Shown in pieces: positions 32,672 through 42,100 of a stretch of 64,000 nucleotides of DNA. Origin of the DNA: Actinomycetes bacterium (GTDB taxonomy: Bacteria > Actinomycetota > Thermoleophilia > BMS3ABIN01); the NCBI GenBank assembly GCA_021791195.1, contig JAJYXB010000008.1, positions 10,921 through 74,920 on the forward strand, read 5' to 3'. A model generated the notes under the pieces. The model was not told the origin of the DNA and did not search any database. It was given only the letters and a program-made list of their open reading frames with translations. How positions within the stretch are numbered: the first letter of the stretch is position 1; each line of letters begins with the position of its first letter. The position numbers were made by a program, and so were the translations under genes.

Positions 32672-33730
32672 CTAGAAAAGCTTCTCCTCCGCGGCCGGCG
32701 CCTCCCTGCCCTGTCCGCCCGCCGTACCGGGCGTCGTGGCGTCCAGATGCTCGTAGGCCAGCCGCGTGACGACGCGGCCGCGCGGGGTCCGTTTCAGCAT
32801 GCCGCGCTGCAGCAGATAGGGTTCGTAGACATCCTCGATGGTGTCCCGTTCCTCGCCCACCGCCACCGCCAGCGTACTCAGACCGACAGGGCCGCCGTCG
32901 AACTTCTCGATGATCAGCCGCAGGATCTCCCGGTCGACCTTGTCCAGACCCTCGCCGTCCACTTCCAGCAACCCGAGCGCGCTGCGGGCGATGTCGCGGG
33001 TGATGCGGCCTTCGGCTTTCACCTGCGCGTAATCGCGTACGCGCCTGAGCAGCCGGTTGCAGACGCGCGGCGTGCCCCGGGAGCGGCTGGCGATCTCCAT
33101 CAGGCCGTCCGCCTCGGCTTCGACCCCAAGAATGGACGCGGAACGAGCGGCTATTTTTGACAGTTCTGCCGCATTGTAATACTCCAGCCGGTGGGTGACG
33201 CCAAAGCGGTCTCTCAGCGGCGTGGTGATCAGTCCGGCGCGCGTGGTGGCGCCAACCATGGTGAACGGCGGCACGTCCAGGCGGATGGTGCGGGCGCTGG
33301 GACCCTGGCCGATGATGATGTCCAGCTGGTAGTCCTCCATCGCCGGGTAGAGCACCTCTTCCACCGAGCGGCCCAGGCGGTGGATCTCGTCGATGAAGAG
33401 GATGTCACCTTCCTGCAAATTAGTCAAAATCGCGGCAATGTCGGCCTTGCGCTCCAGCGCCGGACCGGACGTGGTGCGGATCGAGACGCCCATCTCGCCG
33501 GCGATGATGCCCGCCAGTGTCGTCTTGCCCAGGCCGGGCGGTCCCACCAGCAGCACGTGGTCAAGCGCCTCGCGGCGCCCCTGCGCCGCCTCGATGAAGA
33601 TCGACAACTGATCCCGGACGCTGTCCTGCCCGATGAAATCGTTGAAGCTGCGCGGCCTGAGGGAGACTTCCAACTCCTCTTCCTCCAGCCGCACCTCCGG
33701 GTCTGACAGGCGGATTTCGTCGTCATTCAT
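32672..33730 (-). CDS. ruvB: Holliday junction ATP-dependent DNA helicase RuvB
   Basis: Walker A ([11 protein letters not shown]), sensor motifs and the RuvB C-terminal winged helix. Confidence 0.95.
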
Positions 33731-33894
33731 TATCTGAATTTCTTTCGCAGCGCATGATTTCTCTTTGCTGATTGCCGCATATCTCTGAAGTACTCCTTCT
33801 TATTCCTGTCAGTTAGTGAAAGATAAAGAAAACATATCAATGGTGAACCAACGATCAAGCCAGCGATTATTCCAATGAATTGAGGGAATGGCAT
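33730..33894 (-). CDS. Small AT-rich ORF encoding a 54-aa single-TM peptide between ruvA and ruvB
   Basis: ATG at 33894 lies 2 nt after the ruvA stop (TAAAATG). Its TAA stop overlaps the ruvB ATG (TAATG). About 38% GC against a ~65% genome. Confidence 0.4.
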
Positions 33895-33895
33895 T

Positions 33896-34483
33896 TTACG
33901 CTCGACCAATCCGTTGTAGCGCAACCCGGATCAGTTCTTCAACCGGCTCATGGGGGTCGGCGCCCGCCAGCGCCGCCTCCGCCTCGCCGAAGTTGTATCC
34001 CAGGCTGATGAGCGCCTCGCGCGCCAGGCAGTAGCCGCCAGCGCCCGCGGCCTGGCCGCCGTCCGCGGCTGCCGCGACCGGCTGGCCCACCTTGTCCTTC
34101 AGCTCCAGCACCAGCCGTTCGGCGGTTTTCTTGCCGATGCCGGAGATGCTCTGGAAGAGAGCCACGTCCCTGGCCGCAACCGCCCGCCTGAGATCATCAG
34201 GCCCGTAGGCCGAGAGCACGGCGATGGCCACCTTCGGCCCCACACCAGAGACGCCCTTGAGCAATTCGAAAAAGTCGCGCTCCTCGGCCTCGACGAAACC
34301 GTAGAGGCTGAGGACGTCCTCGCGGACGTACAGATATGTGTGGACAAAAACTTCATTGATGGCATCGCCCAGAAAGGAAAGGCTGCGCCCGGACATGGTC
34401 AGCCGGTAGCCGACACCGCCGACATCGAGCACGATGCCTTCGGCGTCGCGCGCCTGGATCTTTCCTGTGAGAGAGGCGATCAT
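33896..34483 (-). CDS. ruvA: Holliday junction DNA helicase RuvA
   Basis: RuvA domains I-III (MIASLTGKI...GVGYRL...; HhH motifs GVGPKVA). Confidence 0.95.
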   Translation of the reverse strand: MIASLTGKIQARDAEGIVLDVGGVGYRLTMSGRSLSFLGDAINEVFVHTYLYVREDVLSLYGFVEAEERDFFELLKGVSGVGPKVAIAVLSAYGPDDLRRAVAARDVALFQSISGIGKKTAERLVLELKDKVGQPVAAAADGGQAAGAGGYCLAREALISLGYNFGEAEAALAGADPHEPVEELIRVALQRIGRA

Positions 34484-35058
34484 GACATCCCTCCGGCGGA
34501 AAAGCCCGGTCCGCCCGTCCGCCTGACCGGGCGCGGCTGCGCCGCCGCCAGCAGCGAATTTGATTGCATGGAATGGGCGTGACAGATTGCGACCGCAAGC
34601 GCGTCCGCGGCATGATCGGGGGAAGGCACCTTCGAAAGGCCCAGCAGCGCCTTTACCATCTGCTGCACCTGTGACTTGCTGGCGCGCCCGTAACCGACCA
34701 CCGCCTGCTTGATCCTCAGGGGAGTGTAGTCGTGCGGCGTGACGCCGCGCTCGGCGCAGGCCAGTACGGCCACGCCGCGCGCCTGGCCCACGGCCAGGGC
34801 CGTCTTCAGGTTGATGCCGCCGAAGAGTTCCTCGATGGCGGCCACCTCGGGATGATGTTCGTCGATCACTTCCAGCAACGCCCGGTGGATTTGCGAAAGG
34901 CGTTCGTGGCCGGCCTCACTGGCGGAGGTGACAATGCTGCCGTGTCCGATCAGCCGCGAGCGGCCCGCCTCATGCTCGATCACTCCCCAACCGGTTGCCG
35001 CGATGCCGGGATCGATGCCGAGCAGACGCACGGAGGAGCTTTTTTGTTTCAGGGCCAA
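34480..35058 (-). CDS. ruvC: Crossover junction endodeoxyribonuclease RuvC
   Basis: RNase H-like fold (LLGIDPGIAATGWGV...). Overlaps ruvA by 4 nt. Confidence 0.9.
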   Translation of the reverse strand: MALKQKSSSVRLLGIDPGIAATGWGVIEHEAGRSRLIGHGSIVTSASEAGHERLSQIHRALLEVIDEHHPEVAAIEELFGGINLKTALAVGQARGVAVLACAERGVTPHDYTPLRIKQAVVGYGRASKSQVQQMVKALLGLSKVPSPDHAADALAVAICHAHSMQSNSLLAAAQPRPVRRTGGPGFSAGGMS

Positions 35059-35152
35059 TCTGCCTACGCCTTTCTGTCAACCCTCGTTCCCGCGGCAAGT
35101 GCCGGACCGGAGCCGCGCGGCATCCTCGCGCGTCTCGCCGGCGCGCGGATGT

Positions 35153-35899
35153 TTACGCCAGCGCCTCCAGCACTTCCTCGCTGATGTCGAAGTTGGCGTG
35201 CACTTCCTGGACGTCGTCGTTGTCCTCCAGGGCGTCCATCAGCCGCATCATCTTCTTGGCGTCGCTCTGCTCGAGTTTGACCGTGGTCTTGGGGAGCATG
35301 GCCAGCTCAGCGGACTCGTAGGCGATGCCGGCGTCATCGATGGCCTGCCGCACGGTCATGAAATCGGCCGGGTCGGTGACGATCTCGTAGGTGCCCTCAT
35401 CCTGGTTGACGTCCTCGGCGCCGGCGTCGATGGCGGCCGTCATCAGCTCGTCCTCGTCGACCTTGCCGGCGTCCACGACGATCGAGCCCTTGCGCTCGAA
35501 CAGCCAGGCCACCGAGCCGGTCTCGCCCAGCTTGCCGCCGGTCTTGTTAAAGATGTTGCGCACGTCCGACGCGGTGCGGTTGCGGTTGTCGGTCATCGCC
35601 TCCACCAGCACGGCGACGCCGGCCGGTCCGTAGCCCTCATAGGTGATGGTCTCGTAGGACTCGCCGTCGCCGCCACCGGTGCCCTTGGCGATGGCGCGCT
35701 CGATGTTATCCTTCGGCATCGAGTTGTCCTTGGCCTTCTGGATGGCGGTCGCCAGCGTGGCGTTGCCGGCCGGGTCGCCGCCGCCCTCCTTGGCCGCCAC
35801 GGTGATGGCGCGCGAAAGCTTGGAAAAGAGCTTGCCGCGTTTGGTGTCAGCGGCGCCCTTCTTGTGTTTGATGGATGACCATTTGGAATGTCCGGACAC
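35153..35899 (-). CDS. yebC: YebC/PmpR-family transcriptional regulator
   Basis: [28 protein letters not shown] is the conserved YebC N-terminus. Confidence 0.95.
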
Positions 35900-36156
35900 T
35901 TATTCCTCCGGGGTCGGATTGGCAGTTGCGGCGCGCGGGACCGCCGTAAGTGCCGCTGGCAGCCGCCGGCAAGCGCCGGAAATCGCTCAGGTAATAATAT
36001 AACAGAGGCGGCGGACGTGCAGAGCAGCCCTCAGCTCACGGAAGGATTAGACACTTACCTTGCCAAATTCGATAATTATCTTTTTTTGCAAGCATTGCCG
36101 CACGGGTCATGAAGCACATTCCACTACGGCGCACCCTAAGCCCGGACGGATAAACG

Positions 36157-36426
36157 TTAGCCCTCGATCTTCAGCTCCATGTCGGGAATCGCTGATGCGA
36201 TCCGCTTTAGTTGGTCCGCGCTGAAGCCGTTACCGTAAAGTCCCATGAAAATCTTCCCCTTCAGCTGCGCTGCGGTGATTCCCGGGTCTTGCCTCCTGAT
36301 GCCGATCTCCATCAGTTGCTTGGCCGTCTCGAACATGTCGCTGGCCATCTGAAGGCGCTCGGCGGGAGTGCGCTCGGTAAACATTGAGAGCCACAACTTC
36401 TCTACGGCGGGTGGGGTGTCACGCAT
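36157..36426 (-). CDS. Hypothetical 89-aa protein, partner of the upstream nucleotidyltransferase-fold gene
   Basis: Overlaps the upstream gene by 8 nt. Lower GC. No recognised domain. Confidence 0.4.
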   Translation of the reverse strand: MRDTPPAVEKLWLSMFTERTPAERLQMASDMFETAKQLMEIGIRRQDPGITAAQLKGKIFMGLYGNGFSADQLKRIASAIPDMELKIEG

Positions 36427-36970
36427 TCTGCTGAGCCTTCCTTAACAAACCATCCACTTCGAGCCGTTTGGCCCATTCATGGAGGTAATCGTAGTCGAGC
36501 TTTTCGTGGGCTTTCAGAATCTGCTCGACATACCTCATCTGAAATTCCGGTTCGGAGTCCTTTGCCCAAACAAGCTTGGACAGAATAAGGTCTTCCGCCG
36601 CGACGACCGTAACCGGGACATCGCCCATCTCGATTCGCTGTCTGCGCGAGAACTCCCTCAGCCGGTAATCCTCGTCCTTTCTCACGATGAAATCGAATTT
36701 GACCGCCGATTCGGTGTGAATGATGTTGAACATGTCATGTCGCGCAATCGCTTCCCGCACGGCATGTTCATCGATGTAGAAGTCTTCCTTAAAAATTCTT
36801 ACGAGTTTGTCAACTAGTTCGGAAGAAATGTGAAGCACCATGTCGATGTCCCTCGTCATCCTGGGGGCCGAGTAAAGTGACATTGCAATGGAGCCGGTGA
36901 GCATATAATCGATGCCCGCTTCGTCGAGTCTGGACGTTACAACTTTTAGCAGATCGAACTCGGTGGTCAT
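36419..36970 (-). CDS. Nucleotidyltransferase-fold protein (minimal NTase/Lnu-like: GS...DIDMV)
   Basis: DYMLTGSIAMSLYSAPRMTRDIDMVL matches the Pol-beta superfamily hG[GS]...DxD signature. 183 aa. Its start overlaps the stop of the truncated HEPN ORF. Confidence 0.5.
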   Translation of the reverse strand: MTTEFDLLKVVTSRLDEAGIDYMLTGSIAMSLYSAPRMTRDIDMVLHISSELVDKLVRIFKEDFYIDEHAVREAIARHDMFNIIHTESAVKFDFIVRKDEDYRLREFSRRQRIEMGDVPVTVVAAEDLILSKLVWAKDSEPEFQMRYVEQILKAHEKLDYDYLHEWAKRLEVDGLLRKAQQNA

Positions 36971-37182
36971 GGCTTAATGCTTGGTCGGATCAGTCCCGCT
37001 GCCTGAGCTCCTCCAGAAACCTTGCTTGCGGCCTCACCGATAATCTCAATGGATTTAATGAGCGAAAGTGTCAACTTTCGGTCCGCGTCGAGATCGCTTC
37101 TTGTCTTGCCAGATATAAATGAAACAGCCTCGCGGGCTGAATCGAGCATGTGGCGAAGGCGAATGATATCGTCAGGCAGCAT
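36967..37182 (-). pseudogene. Truncated HepT-like HEPN (DUF86) toxin gene lacking the C-terminal Rx4-6H motif
   Basis: IIRLRHMLDSAREAVSF...LSLIKSIEIIGEAASKV matches the N-terminal two-thirds of DUF86. The ORF ends exactly where the 183-aa gene starts. Confidence 0.5.
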
Positions 37183-37480
37183 ACTGAACTTCAGCCTCAG
37201 CGATGACGTCATCGCGAAAATAACGACTCAGATCCTCGGGTGTGCGCAGATCCGCTTTTCTGCCCAGCATTTCGGAAAGCTCCCGCTCCATGCGGGCGAG
37301 ACGGATAAAACCCGGAACATGACCTGGCTCGAACTCGACCAGCACATCGATATCGCTGTCGGGCCGGAAGTCGCTTCGCAAAACAGATCCAAAGAAGGCG
37401 AACTTGCGGATATGATTGCTGCGGCAAAAGTCGGCAATCTTTGACTTGGGAATTTCGATCTTTGGCTTCATCGATGTCAT
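37172..37480 (-). CDS. MntA-like minimal nucleotidyltransferase (antitoxin-type)
   Basis: [24 protein letters not shown] is the classic MNT motif. The ORF is open to 37696 with a GC-rich 72-aa N-terminal extension of unclear status. Confidence 0.6.
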
Positions 37481-37734
37481 TTCATTATCAGCACAAAAGC
37501 GGTGGCCACATTGATGGGTCTCGTTGTAAGCGGGGCTCTTGTAGGCGGCTTCGTTGTTGCGGAAGTTTTCCACCAGCTCGGCGATGCGGGCGCGGGTTTC
37601 GGCGGGCACTGCCAGACGCGGCGTTTCCTCGGGCGCATTTGGCGCGGCTTGCCGCGCTCCCGTAGACGCATCCATAGCTTGGCCGTCAGTTGACATGAAG
37701 CAATTATATCACCAGGCGCGGACGGGCTCGGGAA

Positions 37735-38355
37735 TTATTGCTTCCTTTTTGCCGGCGCCTGCTTCTCGGGAGCGCGCTTCTTCTTTGCCGGCGCCTCGGG
37801 ATTCCAGTGAAATCCGATCTGATTCTTCTTCGGCTTCGGGGGTTCCATCAGTTGGCGGATGGCTTCGAAGACGACGCGGAATTGGGCATCGTATTTCTTC
37901 TCCAGCGAGTCGAGTTTGCGGGCCAGATCTGCGTGCGAGTAGGAAATCCTTTTCAGGCTGACAAATGCTCTCATGATTTCGATATTGACGCTAATTGCCC
38001 GCTTGCTCCTGAGAACACTCGAAAGCATCGCAACACCTTGTTCGGTGAAAGCGTAAGGCAGATACTTAGCATGCCGGCCGCGCTGGGAATCACCCGGTAA
38101 ACCCGTGGCGGTGGATGAGAGGTTTTCTGACGCAAAGAAGCTTTTGGCCTTTAATGCCGTTAATTCCGCCTTTAATAGCTGGAACATGAAATCATCCGGA
38201 AACCTCTCAATGTTCCGTTTGACAGCCTGGATCAATACCCGATGTTCGACTTCATAGAGCCGGGCCAGGTCATCGCTCAACATTACCTTGTTTCCACGTA
38301 GAACAACGATCTTTTTTTCAACGACTTCTTCCGAAACAATTGCAATTTCTTTCAC
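37735..38355 (-). CDS. ORF6N (KilA-N-like) domain DNA-binding protein
   Basis: [42 protein letters not shown]...[15 protein letters not shown] matches the ORF6N domain. GTG start with GGGAGG Shine-Dalgarno. Lys-rich tail. Confidence 0.75.
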
Positions 38356-38385
38356 CGCGTCCTCCCTTTTGATGATTCTCTAAGA

Positions 38386-38398
38386 TCACAAATTGTGA
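38386..38398. promoter_or_regulatory. Palindromic operator-like site TCACAA-A-TTGTGA upstream of the ORF6N gene
   Basis: Perfect 6-bp half-sites located 31-43 nt upstream of the GTG start, in an AT-rich spacer. Confidence 0.4.
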
Positions 38399-38564
38399 CC
38401 TTAAAAAAGCCTTTTCCAGATAAAGGAGATCATATCTGCTGGGCCGGACGGATGTTGTCAGAGGCGGCGACGGGAAGGTTCTTTGCTTCACTCGGGATGG
38501 CACAGGGCAAGGAGGGGTCTACCGGGTAGATATCCGGTCTAAATATACGGCCTTGAATTATTGC

Positions 38565-38996
38565 CTACCCCGGCATCAGCGCCGCGATGCCCTTTGGCAG
38601 CGCCGCCCTGATCTTCTCCACCTCGCCGTGGTCGAGATGCAGCGTGATCGTTTCCAGCACGGTGCTGGTCATGCGCCTGACGTCGAGCCCCTCATCACGG
38701 TCATAGATGAAGCGCCGTGCGATCTCATCGAGGAACTCCTGCCGGTTCATCTTGACCGGCACACGGGCGGGCGCCCAGCCCTCGTAATAGATGCCCCGCA
38801 CCAGCTCGGGCAGCTGGGCGCCGAGGCTGGCGGCGGCGTTGACAGGCAGCCGGTCCCTGAGTGTGTGCAGCACCACCCTCATGGCCAGCAGCGCCTCGTC
38901 CGGCCGGCCCTGCCAGCCCATCTCCCGCTCGATCTCCGAGAGGATGCGGTTGGTCTTTTCGACTGTGGTGCTGATCGCGGCAACGTTCTCAGCCAT
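38565..38996 (-). CDS. DUF2267 domain protein
   Basis: 143-aa product with the DUF2267-like pattern (LPELVRGIYYEGWAP). Confidence 0.7.
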   Translation of the reverse strand: MAENVAAISTTVEKTNRILSEIEREMGWQGRPDEALLAMRVVLHTLRDRLPVNAAASLGAQLPELVRGIYYEGWAPARVPVKMNRQEFLDEIARRFIYDRDEGLDVRRMTSTVLETITLHLDHGEVEKIRAALPKGIAALMPG

Positions 38997-39125
38997 GATG
39001 GCCTCCCCGGTAGCTGTGGATAATCCCTTAAGTGGATTATGGCCGGCAGGCGTCTGGCCAAACCTGGGAGTCGGGAAGGAAGCGGGAGGTCGGTTCAGGC
39101 TGGCGGGTGGCAGGCCAACCCGTGC

Positions 39126-39734
39126 TCAGGCGCGGGCAGTCGCGGCGGAGACGGTTTCCAAAAACAGCCGGTGCAGCCTCAGATCTTGGGTCAGCTCGGG
39201 ATGGAAGGCGGTCACAAGCATGCTGTCCTGACGGGCGGCCACAGGGTGGCCTTCATGCCCGGCGAGGATTTCCACCTCCGGACCGGCCGACTCGATCCAG
39301 GGCGCGCGGATGAATATCCCATGAAAAGGTTCTTTGCCAAATACTGGCAGTTCGAGCTCGGCCTCGAAGCTTTTCACCTGGCGGCCAAAAGCGTTGCGGC
39401 GCACCCTGATATCCATCAGCCCCAGCAGCGGCTGGTCGCCCTCAACCACCTCGCGCGCCAGCATCACTAGGCCGGCGCAGGTGCCGAAGACAGGCAGTCC
39501 GGCCGCGACCAGTCCGCGCACCGGCTCGAGCAGATGGTAGCTGACCATCAGCTTGCCGATGGTCGTGCTCTCGCCGCCCGGGATCACCAGGCCGGCAAGC
39601 CCTTCCAGCTCGCGGCGGCGGCGGACCTCGCGGGCGGCGGCGCCGGCTTTTTCCAGCGCCCGGCAGTGCTCGCGGGAGGCGCCCTGCAGGGCAAGGACGC
39701 CGACAAGCGGGGATTTATTTGCAGATCGAGTCAC
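39126..39734 (-). CDS. pdxT: Pyridoxal 5'-phosphate synthase glutaminase subunit
   Basis: Class-I glutamine amidotransferase triad (GTCAG...H..E) with PdxT-wide similarity. Confidence 0.9.
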   Translation of the reverse strand: MTRSANKSPLVGVLALQGASREHCRALEKAGAAAREVRRRRELEGLAGLVIPGGESTTIGKLMVSYHLLEPVRGLVAAGLPVFGTCAGLVMLAREVVEGDQPLLGLMDIRVRRNAFGRQVKSFEAELELPVFGKEPFHGIFIRAPWIESAGPEVEILAGHEGHPVAARQDSMLVTAFHPELTQDLRLHRLFLETVSAATARA

Positions 39735-39800
39735 GGAAAGACAGGTGCGGCCGGTTGCGGCCCGGCACGTCCACGCTGCCGGGCTTTCGGGAATGCGCCC

Positions 39801-40682
39801 TTACCAGCCGCGATGCTGGATCAGGTTCTCCTCGCCCAGCTCCTTGATGTCGAGGCCGGGCATGGCATCTTTCAGCCCCGCTGACACCCTGGCAAGGATC
39901 TGCGGATCGTTAAAATGCGTGGTCGCCTCAACGATCGCCTTGCCGCGCGCCGCCGGGTCCTCGCTCTTGAAAATGCCGGAGCCGACAAAGACGCCTTCGG
40001 CGCCCAGCTGCATCATCATCGCCGCGTCGGCCGGGGTCGCCAGCCCGCCGGCGGAGAAGTTCACCACCGGCAACCGGCCGTTCTCGGCCACCCACTTGAC
40101 CAGTTCGTAGGGCGACTGCAGCTCCTTCGCCGCCTTGAACAGTTCATCCCTGTCCATGTTCGCCAGCTGCCTGATTTCGCCGGAGATGGTACGCATGTGC
40201 CGCACGGCCTCGACGACGTTGCCGGTGCCGGCCTCGCCCTTGGTGCGGATCATCGCCGCCCCCTCGGAGATGCGCCGGAGCGCCTCGCCCAGGTTGATGG
40301 CGCCGCAGACAAACGGCACCTTGAACTGCCACTTGTTGATGTGGTTGGCCTCGTCGGCGGGCGTAAGCACCTCCGACTCGTCGATGTAATCGACCTCCAG
40401 CGCCTCCAGGATCTGCGCCTCGACGAAATGGCCGATGCGCGCTTTCGCCATCACCGGGATGGACACCGTCTGCTGGATCTCCCTGATCTTGTCCGGATCG
40501 GACATGCGGGCCACGCCGCCATCGGCGCGGATGTCGGAAGGGACCCGCTCCAGCGCCATCACCGCGCAGGCGCCCGCCTCCTCGGCGATCTTTGCCTGCT
40601 CGGCGTTGGTCACATCCATGATCACGCCGCCCTTGAGCATCTCCGCCAGGCCGGTTTTGACTGTCATAGTACCGATTTTCAT
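39801..40682 (-). CDS. pdxS: Pyridoxal 5'-phosphate synthase lyase subunit
   Basis: [10 protein letters not shown]...[15 protein letters not shown] is highly conserved PdxS sequence. Confidence 0.95.
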
Positions 40683-40939
40683 GCCGCCTTGATACCTCCT
40701 CGAATGTAGACAAATATCTTATATAAGAGCGCCGGGGCTTACAAATTCCGTGGACGCGGCGAGGGGCGCGGCGCCCGCTGAAACCCGCCCGGATCCCCCC
40801 GGCGCGCGGTTGACGCGGCCAGGCGCAGGGTATAGCATCCGGCTAACCTGGAAAGGCTCCAAACCGCCCGTATCAAGCGGCGGGCGCGCTTTTGGGTTAT
40901 ATTCTGTGAACACACAATCCGGCTCACCTTAACGGAGGT

Positions 40940-42100
40940 TTGATGGAAGTAGAAATCGGACGCGGCAAGAAGGGGCGGCGCGCCTACGGTCTGGACGATA
41001 TCGCCATCGTCCCCAGCCGCAGGACGCGTGACGTCGAGGACATCGACATCAGCTGGCAGATCGGCCCTCACAGACTGGACATCCCCTGCCTGGCGTCGGC
41101 GATGGACGGCGTCGTGGACCCGAAGTTCGCCGTGGCCATGGGCAAGATCGGCGGTCTGGCGGTGCTTAACCTCGAAGGCATTCAGACCCGTTTCGAGGAC
41201 GCCGAGGACCAGCTGAAGAAGATCGCCGCGCTGCCGGCCGACCAGGCGACCCAGGGCCTCCAGGAGATTTATCAGGAACCGGTGAAGGAAGAGCTGATTA
41301 CGCAGAGGATCAAGGAGATCAAGCAGGGCGGCGTCCTGGCGGCAGCTTCACTCACGCCCCAGAAAGTCACCCAGTACTACGAACGCGCGCTCGAGGCCGG
41401 CCTCGATGTCCTCATCATCCAGGGCACAGTCGTCAGCGCCGAGCACGTCAGCTCGGTGGTCGAGCCGCTCAACCTGAAGAAGTTCATCGCCGAGATGCCC
41501 GTCCCGGTCATCGTCGGCGGCTGCGCCTCCTATACCACGGCGCTGCATCTGATGCGCACCGGCGCGGTGGGCGTGCTGGTCGGTGTCGGTCCCGGCGCCG
41601 CCTGCACCACGCGCGGCGTGCTCGGCATCGGCGTCCCCCAGGCGACCGCGGTGGCCGACGCCTCCGCCGCCCGGGTCCAGCACCTGCTGGAGACCGGCGA
41701 CTATGTCAACGTCATCGCTGACGGCGGCATGCGCACCGGCGGCGACATCGCCAAGGCGATCGCCTGCGGCGCCGACGGCGTCATGATCGGTTCGCCGCTC
41801 TCGCGCGCCTTCGAAGCGCCCGGGCACGGCTATCACTGGGGCATGGCGACCTTCCATCCGCAGCTGCCGCGCGGCACGCGGGTGAAGACCAACCAGGTGG
41901 CCAGCCTCGAAGAGATCCTCGTCGGGCCCGCGCGCGAGAACGACGGCACGCTGAACCTGTTCGGCGCCCTGAAGACCTCGCTGGCGACCTGCGGTTACGA
42001 GAACATCCATGCCTTCCAGAAAGCCGAAGTGATGGTGGCCCCCTCGCTGCAGACCGAAGGCAAGAAGCTGCAGCGCGAGCAAGACGTAGGGATGGGATAG
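40940..42100 (+). CDS. IMP dehydrogenase-family protein lacking CBS domains (GuaB3-like)
   Basis: IMPDH/GMPR TIM-barrel motifs (GGMRTGGDIAKA, GADGVMIGS) in a 386-aa protein with no CBS pair. Confidence 0.8.
   Translation: MMEVEIGRGKKGRRAYGLDDIAIVPSRRTRDVEDIDISWQIGPHRLDIPCLASAMDGVVDPKFAVAMGKIGGLAVLNLEGIQTRFEDAEDQLKKIAALPADQATQGLQEIYQEPVKEELITQRIKEIKQGGVLAAASLTPQKVTQYYERALEAGLDVLIIQGTVVSAEHVSSVVEPLNLKKFIAEMPVPVIVGGCASYTTALHLMRTGAVGVLVGVGPGAACTTRGVLGIGVPQATAVADASAARVQHLLETGDYVNVIADGGMRTGGDIAKAIACGADGVMIGSPLSRAFEAPGHGYHWGMATFHPQLPRGTRVKTNQVASLEEILVGPARENDGTLNLFGALKTSLATCGYENIHAFQKAEVMVAPSLQTEGKKLQREQDVGMG

Follow-up and report, generated by a model that had tools for sequence, protein, structure and literature searches.

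AbiE (AbiEi/AbiEii) is a type IV toxin-antitoxin (TA) and abortive infection system of Streptococcus agalactiae. The prototype toxin MenT1 of M. tuberculosis adds nucleotides to the 3' ends of tRNAs and arrests growth, and its antitoxin MenA1 bridges two toxin protomers in a 2:1 complex and induces T39 auto-phosphorylation (PMC10435456, PMC11375011). In M. tuberculosis, menA1 precedes menT1 (rv0078B-rv0078A), and the toxin substitutions D41A, K137A, and D152A each abolish toxicity (PMC10435456). The antitoxin MntA, partner of the toxin HepT in Shewanella oneidensis, has an adenylyltransferase motif defined as GSX10DXD (PMC7641770).

The locus described here combines relatives of these systems in a low-GC islet within a 64-kb stretch of DNA (the window) from an uncultured member of the Thermoleophilia (Actinomycetota), where it sits between yebC (35153-35899) and a DUF2267 gene (38565-38996), both assigned with Pfam. 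As originally predicted, GC content drops between these two genes, to 0.43-0.57 over about 35900-38600 versus 0.63-0.72 in the flanks (in summary, from about 0.65 to 0.43-0.56), and five ORFs lie there in the predicted layout, all on the minus strand. Pfam matches were obtained for all five, that of the HepT-like ORF falling just under the cut-off. The arrangement is not an assembly chimera, as the same junction occurs in many independent assemblies: the exact 183-aa protein of the islet was read on 20 contigs, the gene arrangement is identical in all eight places displayed (NCBI MAGs, JGI metagenomes, and single-run Logan assemblies), and two of the loci (L001 and L002) are 100% identical to window positions 33000-42000. 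We detected no tRNA or tmRNA gene in the window, no Rfam family in 33000-42000, and no integrase, tRNA gene, or IS within the window's copy of the islet. Among strains whose YebC proteins are identical or share at least 90% identity, the cargo at this site differs; the islet is a strain-variable TA/defense patch, and this part of the prediction is supported. Our results suggest that the islet is probably such a hot spot, occupied by an eroded, collinear copy of a restriction-modification (RM)-mntA-hepT-menT-menA island in which both toxins are disabled.

The 183-aa gene (36419-36970, minus strand) encodes a nucleotidyltransferase that matches the Pfam families AbiEii (26.9 bits; cut-off, 22.5) and DUF2204 (24.0 bits; cut-off, 20.3). 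The 89-aa gene (36157-36426, minus strand) overlaps it by 8 nt at its stop codon and encodes a small protein whose residues 18-58 match Rv0078B (36.4 bits; cut-off, 27.1). The best PDB sequence match of the toxin family profile is 8AN4 (MenT1; E value of 3.4e-5), and with an AF2 model of the 183-aa protein (pLDDT of 90.2) the top four Foldseek hits are 8AN5/8AN4, with TM scores of 0.66-0.71 over 181-185 columns. A direct phmmer match of the 89-aa antitoxin to 8AN5 chain C had an E value of 0.48, the PADLOC AbiEii match to the 183-aa protein was marginal (E value of 0.004), and NCBIfam returned no family for the 183-aa, 89-aa, or ORF6N proteins. By family assignment and predicted fold, the pair is a putative MenT1/MenA1 (Rv0078A/Rv0078B)-type nucleotidyltransferase toxin-antitoxin, with a menT1-like and a menA1-like gene (menT and menA below). 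The original prediction had described a novel two-gene module with an 89-aa ORF of unknown fold; the small protein instead belongs to the MenA1/Rv0078B family, and the pair falls in a known TA family, in an order that is standard for its subfamily and the reverse of that in M. tuberculosis. Apart from this reversal, such a match is what the original prediction had itself named as refuting it. This toxin-first subfamily comprises 4040 protein clusters and 541 species-genome loci from many phyla, and an Rv0078B-like small ORF lies directly downstream of the toxin gene in at least 75 of 80 genomes.

Upstream of menT, a HepT-like ORF (36967-37212, minus strand) matches only positions 1-47 of its 120-position Pfam model (23.1 bits; cut-off, 23.5). 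It contains a 71-aa hepT stub that starts at ATG 37182 (36967-37182, minus strand) and holds codons 1-61/62 of hepT. Alignments to full-length homologues (110-124 aa) extend only over residues 1-61/62 (window 37182 to 36997), so that the stub covers residues 1-61 of a family of roughly 113 aa; homology to intact hepT genes stops at 36997-37016, and the C-terminal end is a nonhomologous tail of about nine codons terminating in KP*. The IPW...RNRLIHAY segment is missing, and the RX4HXY motif (RNRLIHAY in relatives) is absent from both the HepT ORF and the whole window, as is any match to HepT residues 62-113. Rescue by a frameshift, with the shifted frame reading EELRQRD*, was rejected because the C-terminal half is found in no frame and nowhere in the window. 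Alignment to full-length relatives therefore confirms that the HEPN ORF is a truncated gene and not a complete short HEPN protein, as had been predicted together with the loss of the catalytic motif, and the proposed neutralization of HepT is supported by the lost catalytic half. The stub ends where it was said to end, its TGA overlapping the ATG of the 183-aa gene as ATGA (36967-36970), and the nucleotidyltransferase module thus abuts the break.

The next ORF upstream (174 aa; 37172-37696, minus strand) has an MntA-type NTP_transf_2 domain at aa 85-165. ATG 37471 is likely the real mntA start, giving a type VII antitoxin adenylyltransferase of 99 aa (37172-37471, minus strand; NTP_transf_2 E value of 1.6e-14) in which, by reading of the translation, the GSX10DXD motif is intact. 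MntA matches the PADLOC model PDC-S09 over its full length, and its NCBIfam MntA_antitoxin match is weak and below the cut-off (36.8 bits versus 60; E value of 2.8e-9); PADLOC recognizes MntA and the ORF6N protein only as "candidate" systems (PDC-S09 and PDC-S05). For the 75-aa N-terminal extension of the mntA ORF, a word-indexed protein search gave no matches; comparing the extension directly with the RM gene of another locus, L097, settled its origin. Positions 37514-37696 (minus strand) are what is left of a type IIG RM gene, a 5' stub of about 61 codons in frame with mntA: residues 35-60 share 77% identity with residues 12-37 of the Eco57I/MmeI-type enzyme of L097, a protein of 982 aa (E value of 9e-10), and DNA positions 37585-37515 are 79% identical to L097 positions 1554-1624. 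Only about residues 12-38 of the L097 enzyme are matched, and Pfam finds no methylase domain in the 174-aa ORF; the RM-derived segment is a remnant. Its in-frame fusion to the mntA ORF is a new observation.

The most upstream gene of the islet encodes a 206-aa ORF6N (KilA-N-like) protein (37735-38355, minus strand) and is intact in this strain, with the full PF10543 model (positions 1-86) covered at an E value of 2e-28 and a match to PADLOC candidate PDC-S05 (E value of 1e-50); its counterpart in a sister strain (L090) has an internal deletion and is out of frame. An operator-like palindrome had been predicted at this gene and is present: the perfect 13-bp palindrome TCACAAATTGTGA (38386-38398), which occurs once in the window, precedes the ORF6N GTG by 30 nt. 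Eight of 100 shuffles gave at least one match with one mismatch allowed, and we regard the palindrome as a candidate operator. The spacer between the ORF6N gene and the next ORF (37697-37744, minus strand) carries an 11-nt inverted repeat (37697-37707/37734-37744) and, as read from the sequence, an extended -10 element, TGATATAAT, at 37703-37711, which ends 6 nt before ATG 37696. The start of the RM gene in L097 and its surroundings are 82.5% identical to window positions 37725-37686. A generic promoter scan gave no minus-strand promoter-like site in the spacer region, and generic promoter and terminator scans were not above the shuffled expectation. From its sequence and its similarity to L097, this spacer is probably a relic RM promoter that would give a leaderless transcript.

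Two other loci bear on how the islet came to its present form. L097 carries a type IIG RM gene, mntA, a full-length hepT, and menT-like and menA-like genes in the same order as the window, and the cargo of the window is collinear with it throughout, the RM 5' stub included; L096 likewise keeps the order mntA, hepT (full length), menT/menA, with an intervening IS and DUF4926 gene. This collinearity suggests that the adjacency of menT probably predates the truncation of hepT, and because an island of the same order retains a full-length hepT, deletion is favored over insertion. We therefore propose two deletions, of which the first would have taken out nearly the whole RM gene, sparing about 61 codons in frame with mntA, and the second, of about 0.24 kb, would have cost hepT its 3' half and the hepT-menT spacer most of its length, so that the hepT stub now ends in the ATGA overlap with menT. 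The latter deletion appears to be the most economical origin of the stub. The approximately 25 nt from the end of HepT homology to 5 nt before menT (36976-36996) have no secure assignment, with only about 63% similarity to the L097 menT upstream region, and count against this history. The remaining genes would be co-transcribed from the relic RM promoter and probably have little or no function.

The original prediction had the module inserted into, or replacing, the 3' end of hepT, and elsewhere the menT-menA block (36060-36975, minus strand) does recur with other left neighbors, at 97.7-99.6% identity and with sharp borders. In L098-L101 its left neighbor is a 3' stub, 49 codons long, of a type IIG RM gene, and the block becomes homologous to the window 5 nt before the menT ATG; in L099 and L100 its right neighbor differs as well, being a DUF5131 gene. 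Its position behind an RM 3' stub makes recombinational replacement possible in place of deletion in situ. Block replacement does occur at the yebC site, as sister strains with 98-99% identical flanks have a Fic gene in place of segment 36022-37576 (minus strand); this gene adjoins the RM 5' stub in L090 and hepT codon 87 in L093, whose mntA-hepT is 93% identical to that of the window at the DNA level. A mobile two-gene nucleotidyltransferase cassette that was inserted in hepT or recombined over its 3' end, killing the toxin and bringing a working TA pair, would account for these sharp borders and Fic junctions. We nevertheless consider this history unlikely, given the order kept in L097 and L096 around a full-length hepT and the collinearity of the whole cargo, RM stub included. 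Moreover, neither a recombinase nor an IS end or conserved recombination site is present at the junction, L099 does not preserve the hairpin at 36059-36092, and the pair is not novel and encodes a toxin with the substitution D147Y.

This substitution leads from the form of the islet to its activity. The family residues T39, D41, K132, and D147, conserved in 201, 199, 201, and 200 of 201 sequences, respectively, align with MenT1 T39, D41, K137, and D152 at the same 15-residue K-to-D spacing; the D147-D152 correspondence is drawn from a low-scoring HMMER segment (-2.7 bits), this spacing, family conservation, and the global fold match, rather than from an inspected superposition. The window allele keeps T39, D41, and K132 and carries S141P, D147Y, and H160Y. 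Of 201 relatives, 200 have D at position 147, the window allele alone having Y, and 200 have S at position 141. With 21 columns conserved at 99% or more, at least two of three random changes would strike such columns with a probability of 0.035. Tyrosine at the family-invariant Asp147 (MenT1 D152), with proline at the near-invariant Ser141, is new to this study and makes it most likely that the window MenT is catalytically dead, which undercuts the earlier suggestion that a new nucleotidyltransferase pair had been added to the islet. With the catalytic half of HepT lost and MenT probably dead, both islet toxins would be disabled.

Near-identical sister alleles have independent lesions of their own, with D41A in P0126 (L099/L100) and an in-frame 54-codon deletion (aa 109-162, with loss of K132 and D147) in P0127/P0128 (L101). 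Alleles without a catalytic lesion are found only in L098 and, over the residues covered, in L116. The window differs from L098 at 5 of 1394 nt, all five changes being nonsynonymous and located in menT or menA. The window MenA has derived G67 and Q72 residues, plus a G62 that is common to L098; position 67 is D or E in 92% of relatives, and G67 and G62 stand at positions conserved in 89-92% of them. These antitoxin changes fall on conserved acidic and basic positions, and their nonconservative nature fits relaxed selection on the whole module. Five nonsynonymous and no synonymous changes could alternatively reflect positive selection rather than decay, and D147Y could be tolerated or alter specificity.

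The same changes could be read as co-adaptation. If the MenT/MenA-like pair were still a working TA or abortive infection module, S141P, D147Y, D67G, and E72Q might serve escape from a phage inhibitor or an altered substrate, and it is true that both ORFs are open and translationally coupled, that every difference from the L098 allele is nonsynonymous, and that the P141/Y147 allele is the common one, on the 20 contigs mentioned above. We judge this quite improbable, since all 200 other family members have Asp147, MenT1 loses its toxicity through the equivalent D152A, the antitoxin is changed at conserved charged positions, and the sister knock-outs point to loss of activity rather than tuning.

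Erosion of the toxins might also have left something useful behind. MntA and the MenA-like protein could be kept as orphan "anti-addiction" immunity against a HepT or MenT arriving on a plasmid or phage, the dead toxins being by-products, and in keeping with this idea both antitoxin ORFs are open while both toxins are damaged, and MntA retains its motif and full-length match. Such a role seems very unlikely, as the derived G67 and the G62 of MenA suggest drift over maintenance and as the longest ORF fuses a foreign 75-residue N-terminal extension to MntA.

The borders of the variable segment are marked by an 11-nt direct repeat, CGCCGCCTCTG, of which the left copy (38459-38469, minus strand) lies 18 nt outside the left border and the right copy (36003-36013, minus strand) 8 nt outside the right border. 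These are the only two copies in the window (expected count, 0.17), both flank the islet, and they are a putative att site or target duplication. An empty site was found neither by a scan of metagenome_contigs for DUF2267 relatives, which gave pattern matches and no confirmed relative, nor with an exact 30-nt flank pattern, which had no match. We do not regard the hairpin at the menT-menA 3' border as a conserved terminator or a recombination site, because it is not conserved in L099 and L100. An integron cassette, considered for this sharp-bordered block, would be recognized by an attC imperfect inverted repeat at the 3' end, conserved between copies, and a GTTRRRY core at both junctions; the block does not show these features, as the sole hairpin at its 3' border is the one that L099 and L100 do not maintain, and the bases left of a shared AAGCC differ between contexts. 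It is highly improbable that the site upstream of yebC is a dedicated cassette-exchange locus bounded by the CGCCGCCTCTG copies and swapping promoterless TA/defense blocks (menT-menA, fic, and mntA-hepT), which would require an unrecognized site-specific or microhomology-guided swap that joins blocks at start codons or a few bases from them, followed by selection of toxin-dead alleles as captured blocks came to be expressed from a foreign upstream promoter; if true, it would be integron-like behavior without a recognizable integron.

Overall, the locus appears to reflect ordinary decay at a defense/TA hot spot and not a new system. Its importance is limited accordingly in that the low-GC "novel NTase pair" is placed in the characterized MenAT1 family and brings no new mechanism. 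It is nonetheless a compact natural example of TA/defense island erosion: gene stubs are fused in frame, one toxin stops short of its catalytic motif, and closely related alleles of the other have been knocked out independently at least three times. The MenAT1 family also proves to have a very large, uncharacterized toxin-first branch across many phyla, a source of obvious homologues for researchers working on MenT.

Among described systems, AbiE shares the nucleotidyltransferase superfamily with the window toxin, which passes the Pfam AbiEii threshold; however, there is no AbiEi-type two-domain antitoxin here, and the toxin is much shorter than the AbiEii models, matching positions 13-147 of the 238-position Pfam profile (the PADLOC AbiEii model has 310 positions). 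The likeness to HepT/MntA of S. oneidensis (SO_3166/SO_3165; PMC7641770) lies in a GSX10DXD mntA followed by an overlapping PF01934 HEPN gene, with RX4HXY present in the closest full-length relatives. In contrast to that system, the window HepT ceases to be HepT past residue 61-62 and has neither the RNase motif nor the AMPylated tyrosine, and the mntA ORF bears the RM stub. MenAT1 is the best PDB match in both sequence and fold, sharing a toxin of about 185-195 aa with a DUF1814/AbiEii-type nucleotidyltransferase fold, the catalytic T39, D41, K, and D kept across the family at identical K-to-D spacing, and a short helical Rv0078B-family antitoxin encoded beside the toxin. It differs in that sequence identity to the window toxin is only about 20%, the gene order is reversed (likewise in the sampled subfamily), with the antitoxin overlapping the toxin stop, the antitoxin has 89 aa here versus 68 aa in M. 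tuberculosis, and the window allele has Tyr at the D152 equivalent and Pro at Ser141. As a whole, the islet differs from defense/TA hot-spot islands in that the sole candidate border mark in the window is the 11-nt direct repeat, and it resembles them in its GC content below that of the flanks, its several gene remnants, and its identical core flanks around varied cargo (Fic, MntA-HepT, MenT-MenA, RM stubs, and ORF6N).

The low-GC islet lies between a DUF2267 gene (38565-38996) and yebC (35153-35899), with a GC content of 0.43-0.57 over ~35900-38600 versus 0.63-0.72 in the flanks. These genes bracket five minus-strand ORFs: ORF6N (37735-38355, 206 aa; Pfam E value, 2e-28), an MntA-containing ORF (37172-37696) whose C-terminal 99 aa form an MntA-type minimal nucleotidyltransferase (NTP_transf_2; E value, 1.6e-14) with a GSX10DXD motif that reads as intact, a HepT-like ORF (36967-37212; the likely start, ATG 37182, gives 71 aa), a 183-aa nucleotidyltransferase gene (menT, 36419-36970), and an 89-aa ORF (menA, 36157-36426). 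The HepT stop overlaps the menT start in an ATGA, and menT and menA share 8 nt. All of this agrees with the layout first described, from the GC drop to the two gene junctions. The exact 183-aa protein is present on 20 contigs, the arrangement is the same at the 8 places displayed that carry it (MAGs, JGI metagenomes, and single-run assemblies), and the 33000-42000 region is 100% identical to two other loci (L001 and L002); given this recurrence in independent assemblies, the arrangement is not an assembly artefact. Source names place the organism in the Thermoleophilia/Actinomycetota. Another short GC dip, to 0.48, occurs at 33650-33949, upstream of the ruvC region.

The original prediction held that HepT is truncated and lacks its catalytic motif, and alignment to full-length relatives bears this out. 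The Pfam HepT model is matched at positions 1-47 of 120, slightly under threshold, and the nearest relatives (110-124 aa) can be aligned to the window product through residue 61/62, beyond which they run on into IPWQDITAMRNRLIHAYF, the RX4HXY motif, which the product lacks and which is the RNase/AMPylation motif of HepT (PMC7641770). By tblastn, three full-length relatives located residues 1-61/62 at 37182-36997, and the 64 kb gave no match to their C-terminal half. The DNA-level match to intact mntA-hepT genes (93% identity in L093, 80% in L096, and 77% in L097) likewise stops at 36997-37016.

Two of these loci carry full-length hepT together with a MenT-like gene. L096 reads MntA, HepT, IS1595, DUF4926, MenT-like, MenA-like, and L097 reads a 982-aa type IIG restriction-modification (RM) enzyme, an 83-aa ORF, MntA, HepT (113 aa), a 183-aa MenT-like protein, and an Rv0078B-like protein. 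The order in L097 is also that of the window, which matches its RM gene start region at 37725-37686 and 37585-37515 (79-82%), mntA-hepT at 37438-37016 (77%), and menT at 36971-36416 (66%). Given this collinearity, the cargo is best accounted for by two deletions from an island of the L097 type. The first would have removed nearly the whole RM gene and the 83-aa ORF; the second would have taken ~0.24 kb (measured on L097), from hepT codon ~62 to ~25-30 nt before the menT ATG. We treat the second as inferred because the ~25 nt remaining between hepT and menT resemble the L097 menT leader weakly (~63%). The main rival for the window junction is block replacement by recombination: four other loci (L098-L101) carry the menT-menA block (36975-36060) at 97.7-99.6% identity, in L099 and L100 with a different right neighbour, and the borders at 38441 and 36021 enclose other cargo in strains with 98-99% identical flanks. 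Insertion of the pair into hepT, as originally proposed, is probably the wrong direction, since deletion inside an older island fits the L097 collinearity better; the truncation and neutralisation of HepT and the variability of the islet stand.

A type IIG RM gene has left a 5' stub fused in frame to mntA, namely the ~61 first codons of the MntA-containing ORF (37514-37696, minus strand; Eco57I/MmeI-like). Within this 174-aa ORF, residues 35-60 share 77% identity with residues 12-37 of the RM enzyme in L097 (E value, 9e-10), past which the RM sequence is gone and the frame continues into mntA. Reading of the sequence shows an extended -10, TGATATAAT at 37703-37711, that ends 6 nt ahead of ATG 37696 in a stretch also conserved in L097. 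The former RM promoter may thus give rise to a leaderless transcript covering all four ORFs; a generic promoter scan was uninformative here. An 11-nt inverted repeat, GAAGCAATTAT / ATTATTGCTTC (37697-37707 / 37734-37744), encloses the spacer that separates ORF6N from the RM stub, overlaps the putative -10, and could be the ORF6N terminator or an operator. On the other side of ORF6N, 30 nt upstream of its start, is a perfect palindrome, TCACAAATTGTGA, that occurs once in the window. ORF6N itself is mosaic between strains (L090 4240-4722 versus window 37735-38355), with ~75% identity in the 5' part and 98% in the 3' part, and the L090 copy has an out-of-frame internal deletion.

The yebC-upstream site is a hot spot. 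Strains whose YebC matches that of the window exactly or at no less than 90% identity carry an ORF6N pseudogene, a 44-codon RM stub, and a 389-aa Fic protein (L089, L090, L103, L105, and L110); an ISL3 fragment, DUF4926, MntA, a 101-aa HepT cut directly after RNRLIH, and Fic (L093, L106, and L112); or DUF4926, a 49-codon RM 3' stub, a menT free of catalytic lesions, and menA (L098 and L116). No integrase, IS, or tRNA lies within the window's copy of the islet, and its borders are marked only by an 11-nt direct repeat, CGCCGCCTCTG, at 36003-36013 and 38459-38469, 8 and 18 nt outside the variable-segment borders. Both of its copies in the 64 kb are at the islet (expected, 0.17; two copies in 1 of 100 shuffles), and it could represent a relic att site or a target duplication; a DUF2267-relative scan of metagenome contigs and an exact 30-nt flank pattern found no empty site on which to test it.

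The 389-aa Fic_N+Fic protein occupies this site in several sister strains (L090 4240-6035; L093 925-2651; L103, L105, L110, L112, and L114). Its block has the same left end in two settings: in one it meets the RM 5' stub in an overlapping TGATG, and in the other it follows hepT codon 87, immediately past RNRLIH, which costs RX4HXY its Tyr. DUF4926, often with DUF6883, recurs beside mntA-hepT and menT-menA (L099 583-1146, L100, L101, L093 731-916, and L096 6394-6609), and the two may be a further small TA-like pair. Downstream of ruvB, window-type strains have a complete MMPL transporter gene (782 aa; L102 8388-10736), which is shortened to 94-133 aa beside a DUF3048 gene in most Fic-type strains (L103 8343-8744, L105, L106 6137-6421, and L107); Fic-type L112 and L114 retain it at 782-787 aa.

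The 183-aa and 89-aa proteins form a toxin-antitoxin pair of the MenT1/MenA1 type. The 89-aa product, originally assigned no known fold, exceeds the Pfam Rv0078B-antitoxin threshold (36.4 versus 27.1 bits), and the 183-aa protein exceeds those for AbiEii and DUF2204. A profile of 24 family members has MenT1 (8AN4) as its top PDB sequence match, and with an AlphaFold model (pLDDT 90.2) the four best Foldseek matches are MenAT1/MenT1 chains (TM, 0.66-0.71; 181-185 aligned columns). In Mycobacterium tuberculosis, MenT1 (Rv0078A) adds to tRNA 3' ends, and MenA1 (Rv0078B) bridges two MenT1 protomers and triggers T39 auto-phosphorylation (PMC10435456; PMC11375011).

HMMER aligns family T39/D41/K132/D147 to MenT1 T39/D41/K137/D152, with a good N-terminal block and a low-scoring K/D block that nevertheless keeps the identical 15-residue spacing; D41A, K137A, or D152A abolishes MenT1 toxicity (PMC10435456). 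Positions 147 and 141 are D and S in 200 of 201 family members and are Y and P in the window protein only, so that two of its three specific menT changes fall on the 21 columns conserved at 99% or more (P = 0.035). The window differs from L098 at 5 of 1394 positions, all nonsynonymous and within menT (S141P, D147Y, and H160Y) or menA (D67G and E72Q), and the window states are derived, since L098 and L099 agree at all five. At MenA position 67, 92% of 75 relatives have D or E; at position 62, where 89% have R, the window and L098 both have G. The near-identical allele P0126 (L099/L100) carries D41A, and P0127/P0128 (L101) have lost K132 and D147 through an in-frame deletion of residues 109-162; among such alleles, only that of L098 and, for the residues covered, that of L116 have no catalytic lesion. 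Judged from these substitutions, the window MenT looks catalytically dead, and we infer that the derived menT and menA changes reflect selection relaxed once the module's toxin was knocked out.

What this locus adds is the RM stub fused to mntA, the catalytic-site substitution in the toxin, and the independent knock-outs in sister alleles, and these make it a good illustration of how TA islands erode, though no new kind of system. The pair was first taken to be novel, a reading that fails because it belongs to the MenAT1 family with a gene order typical of its branch. The 183-aa family is very large and uniform, with 4040 clusters, mostly of exactly 183 aa, and 541 confirmed loci in species-representative genomes of many phyla. 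Of the 80 loci retrieved, at least 75 have a homologue of the 89-aa protein that begins at or slightly before the toxin stop, and the window pair is thus in the canonical order of its own subfamily. This subfamily places the toxin first, whereas in the M. tuberculosis prototype menA1 precedes menT1 (PMC10435456).
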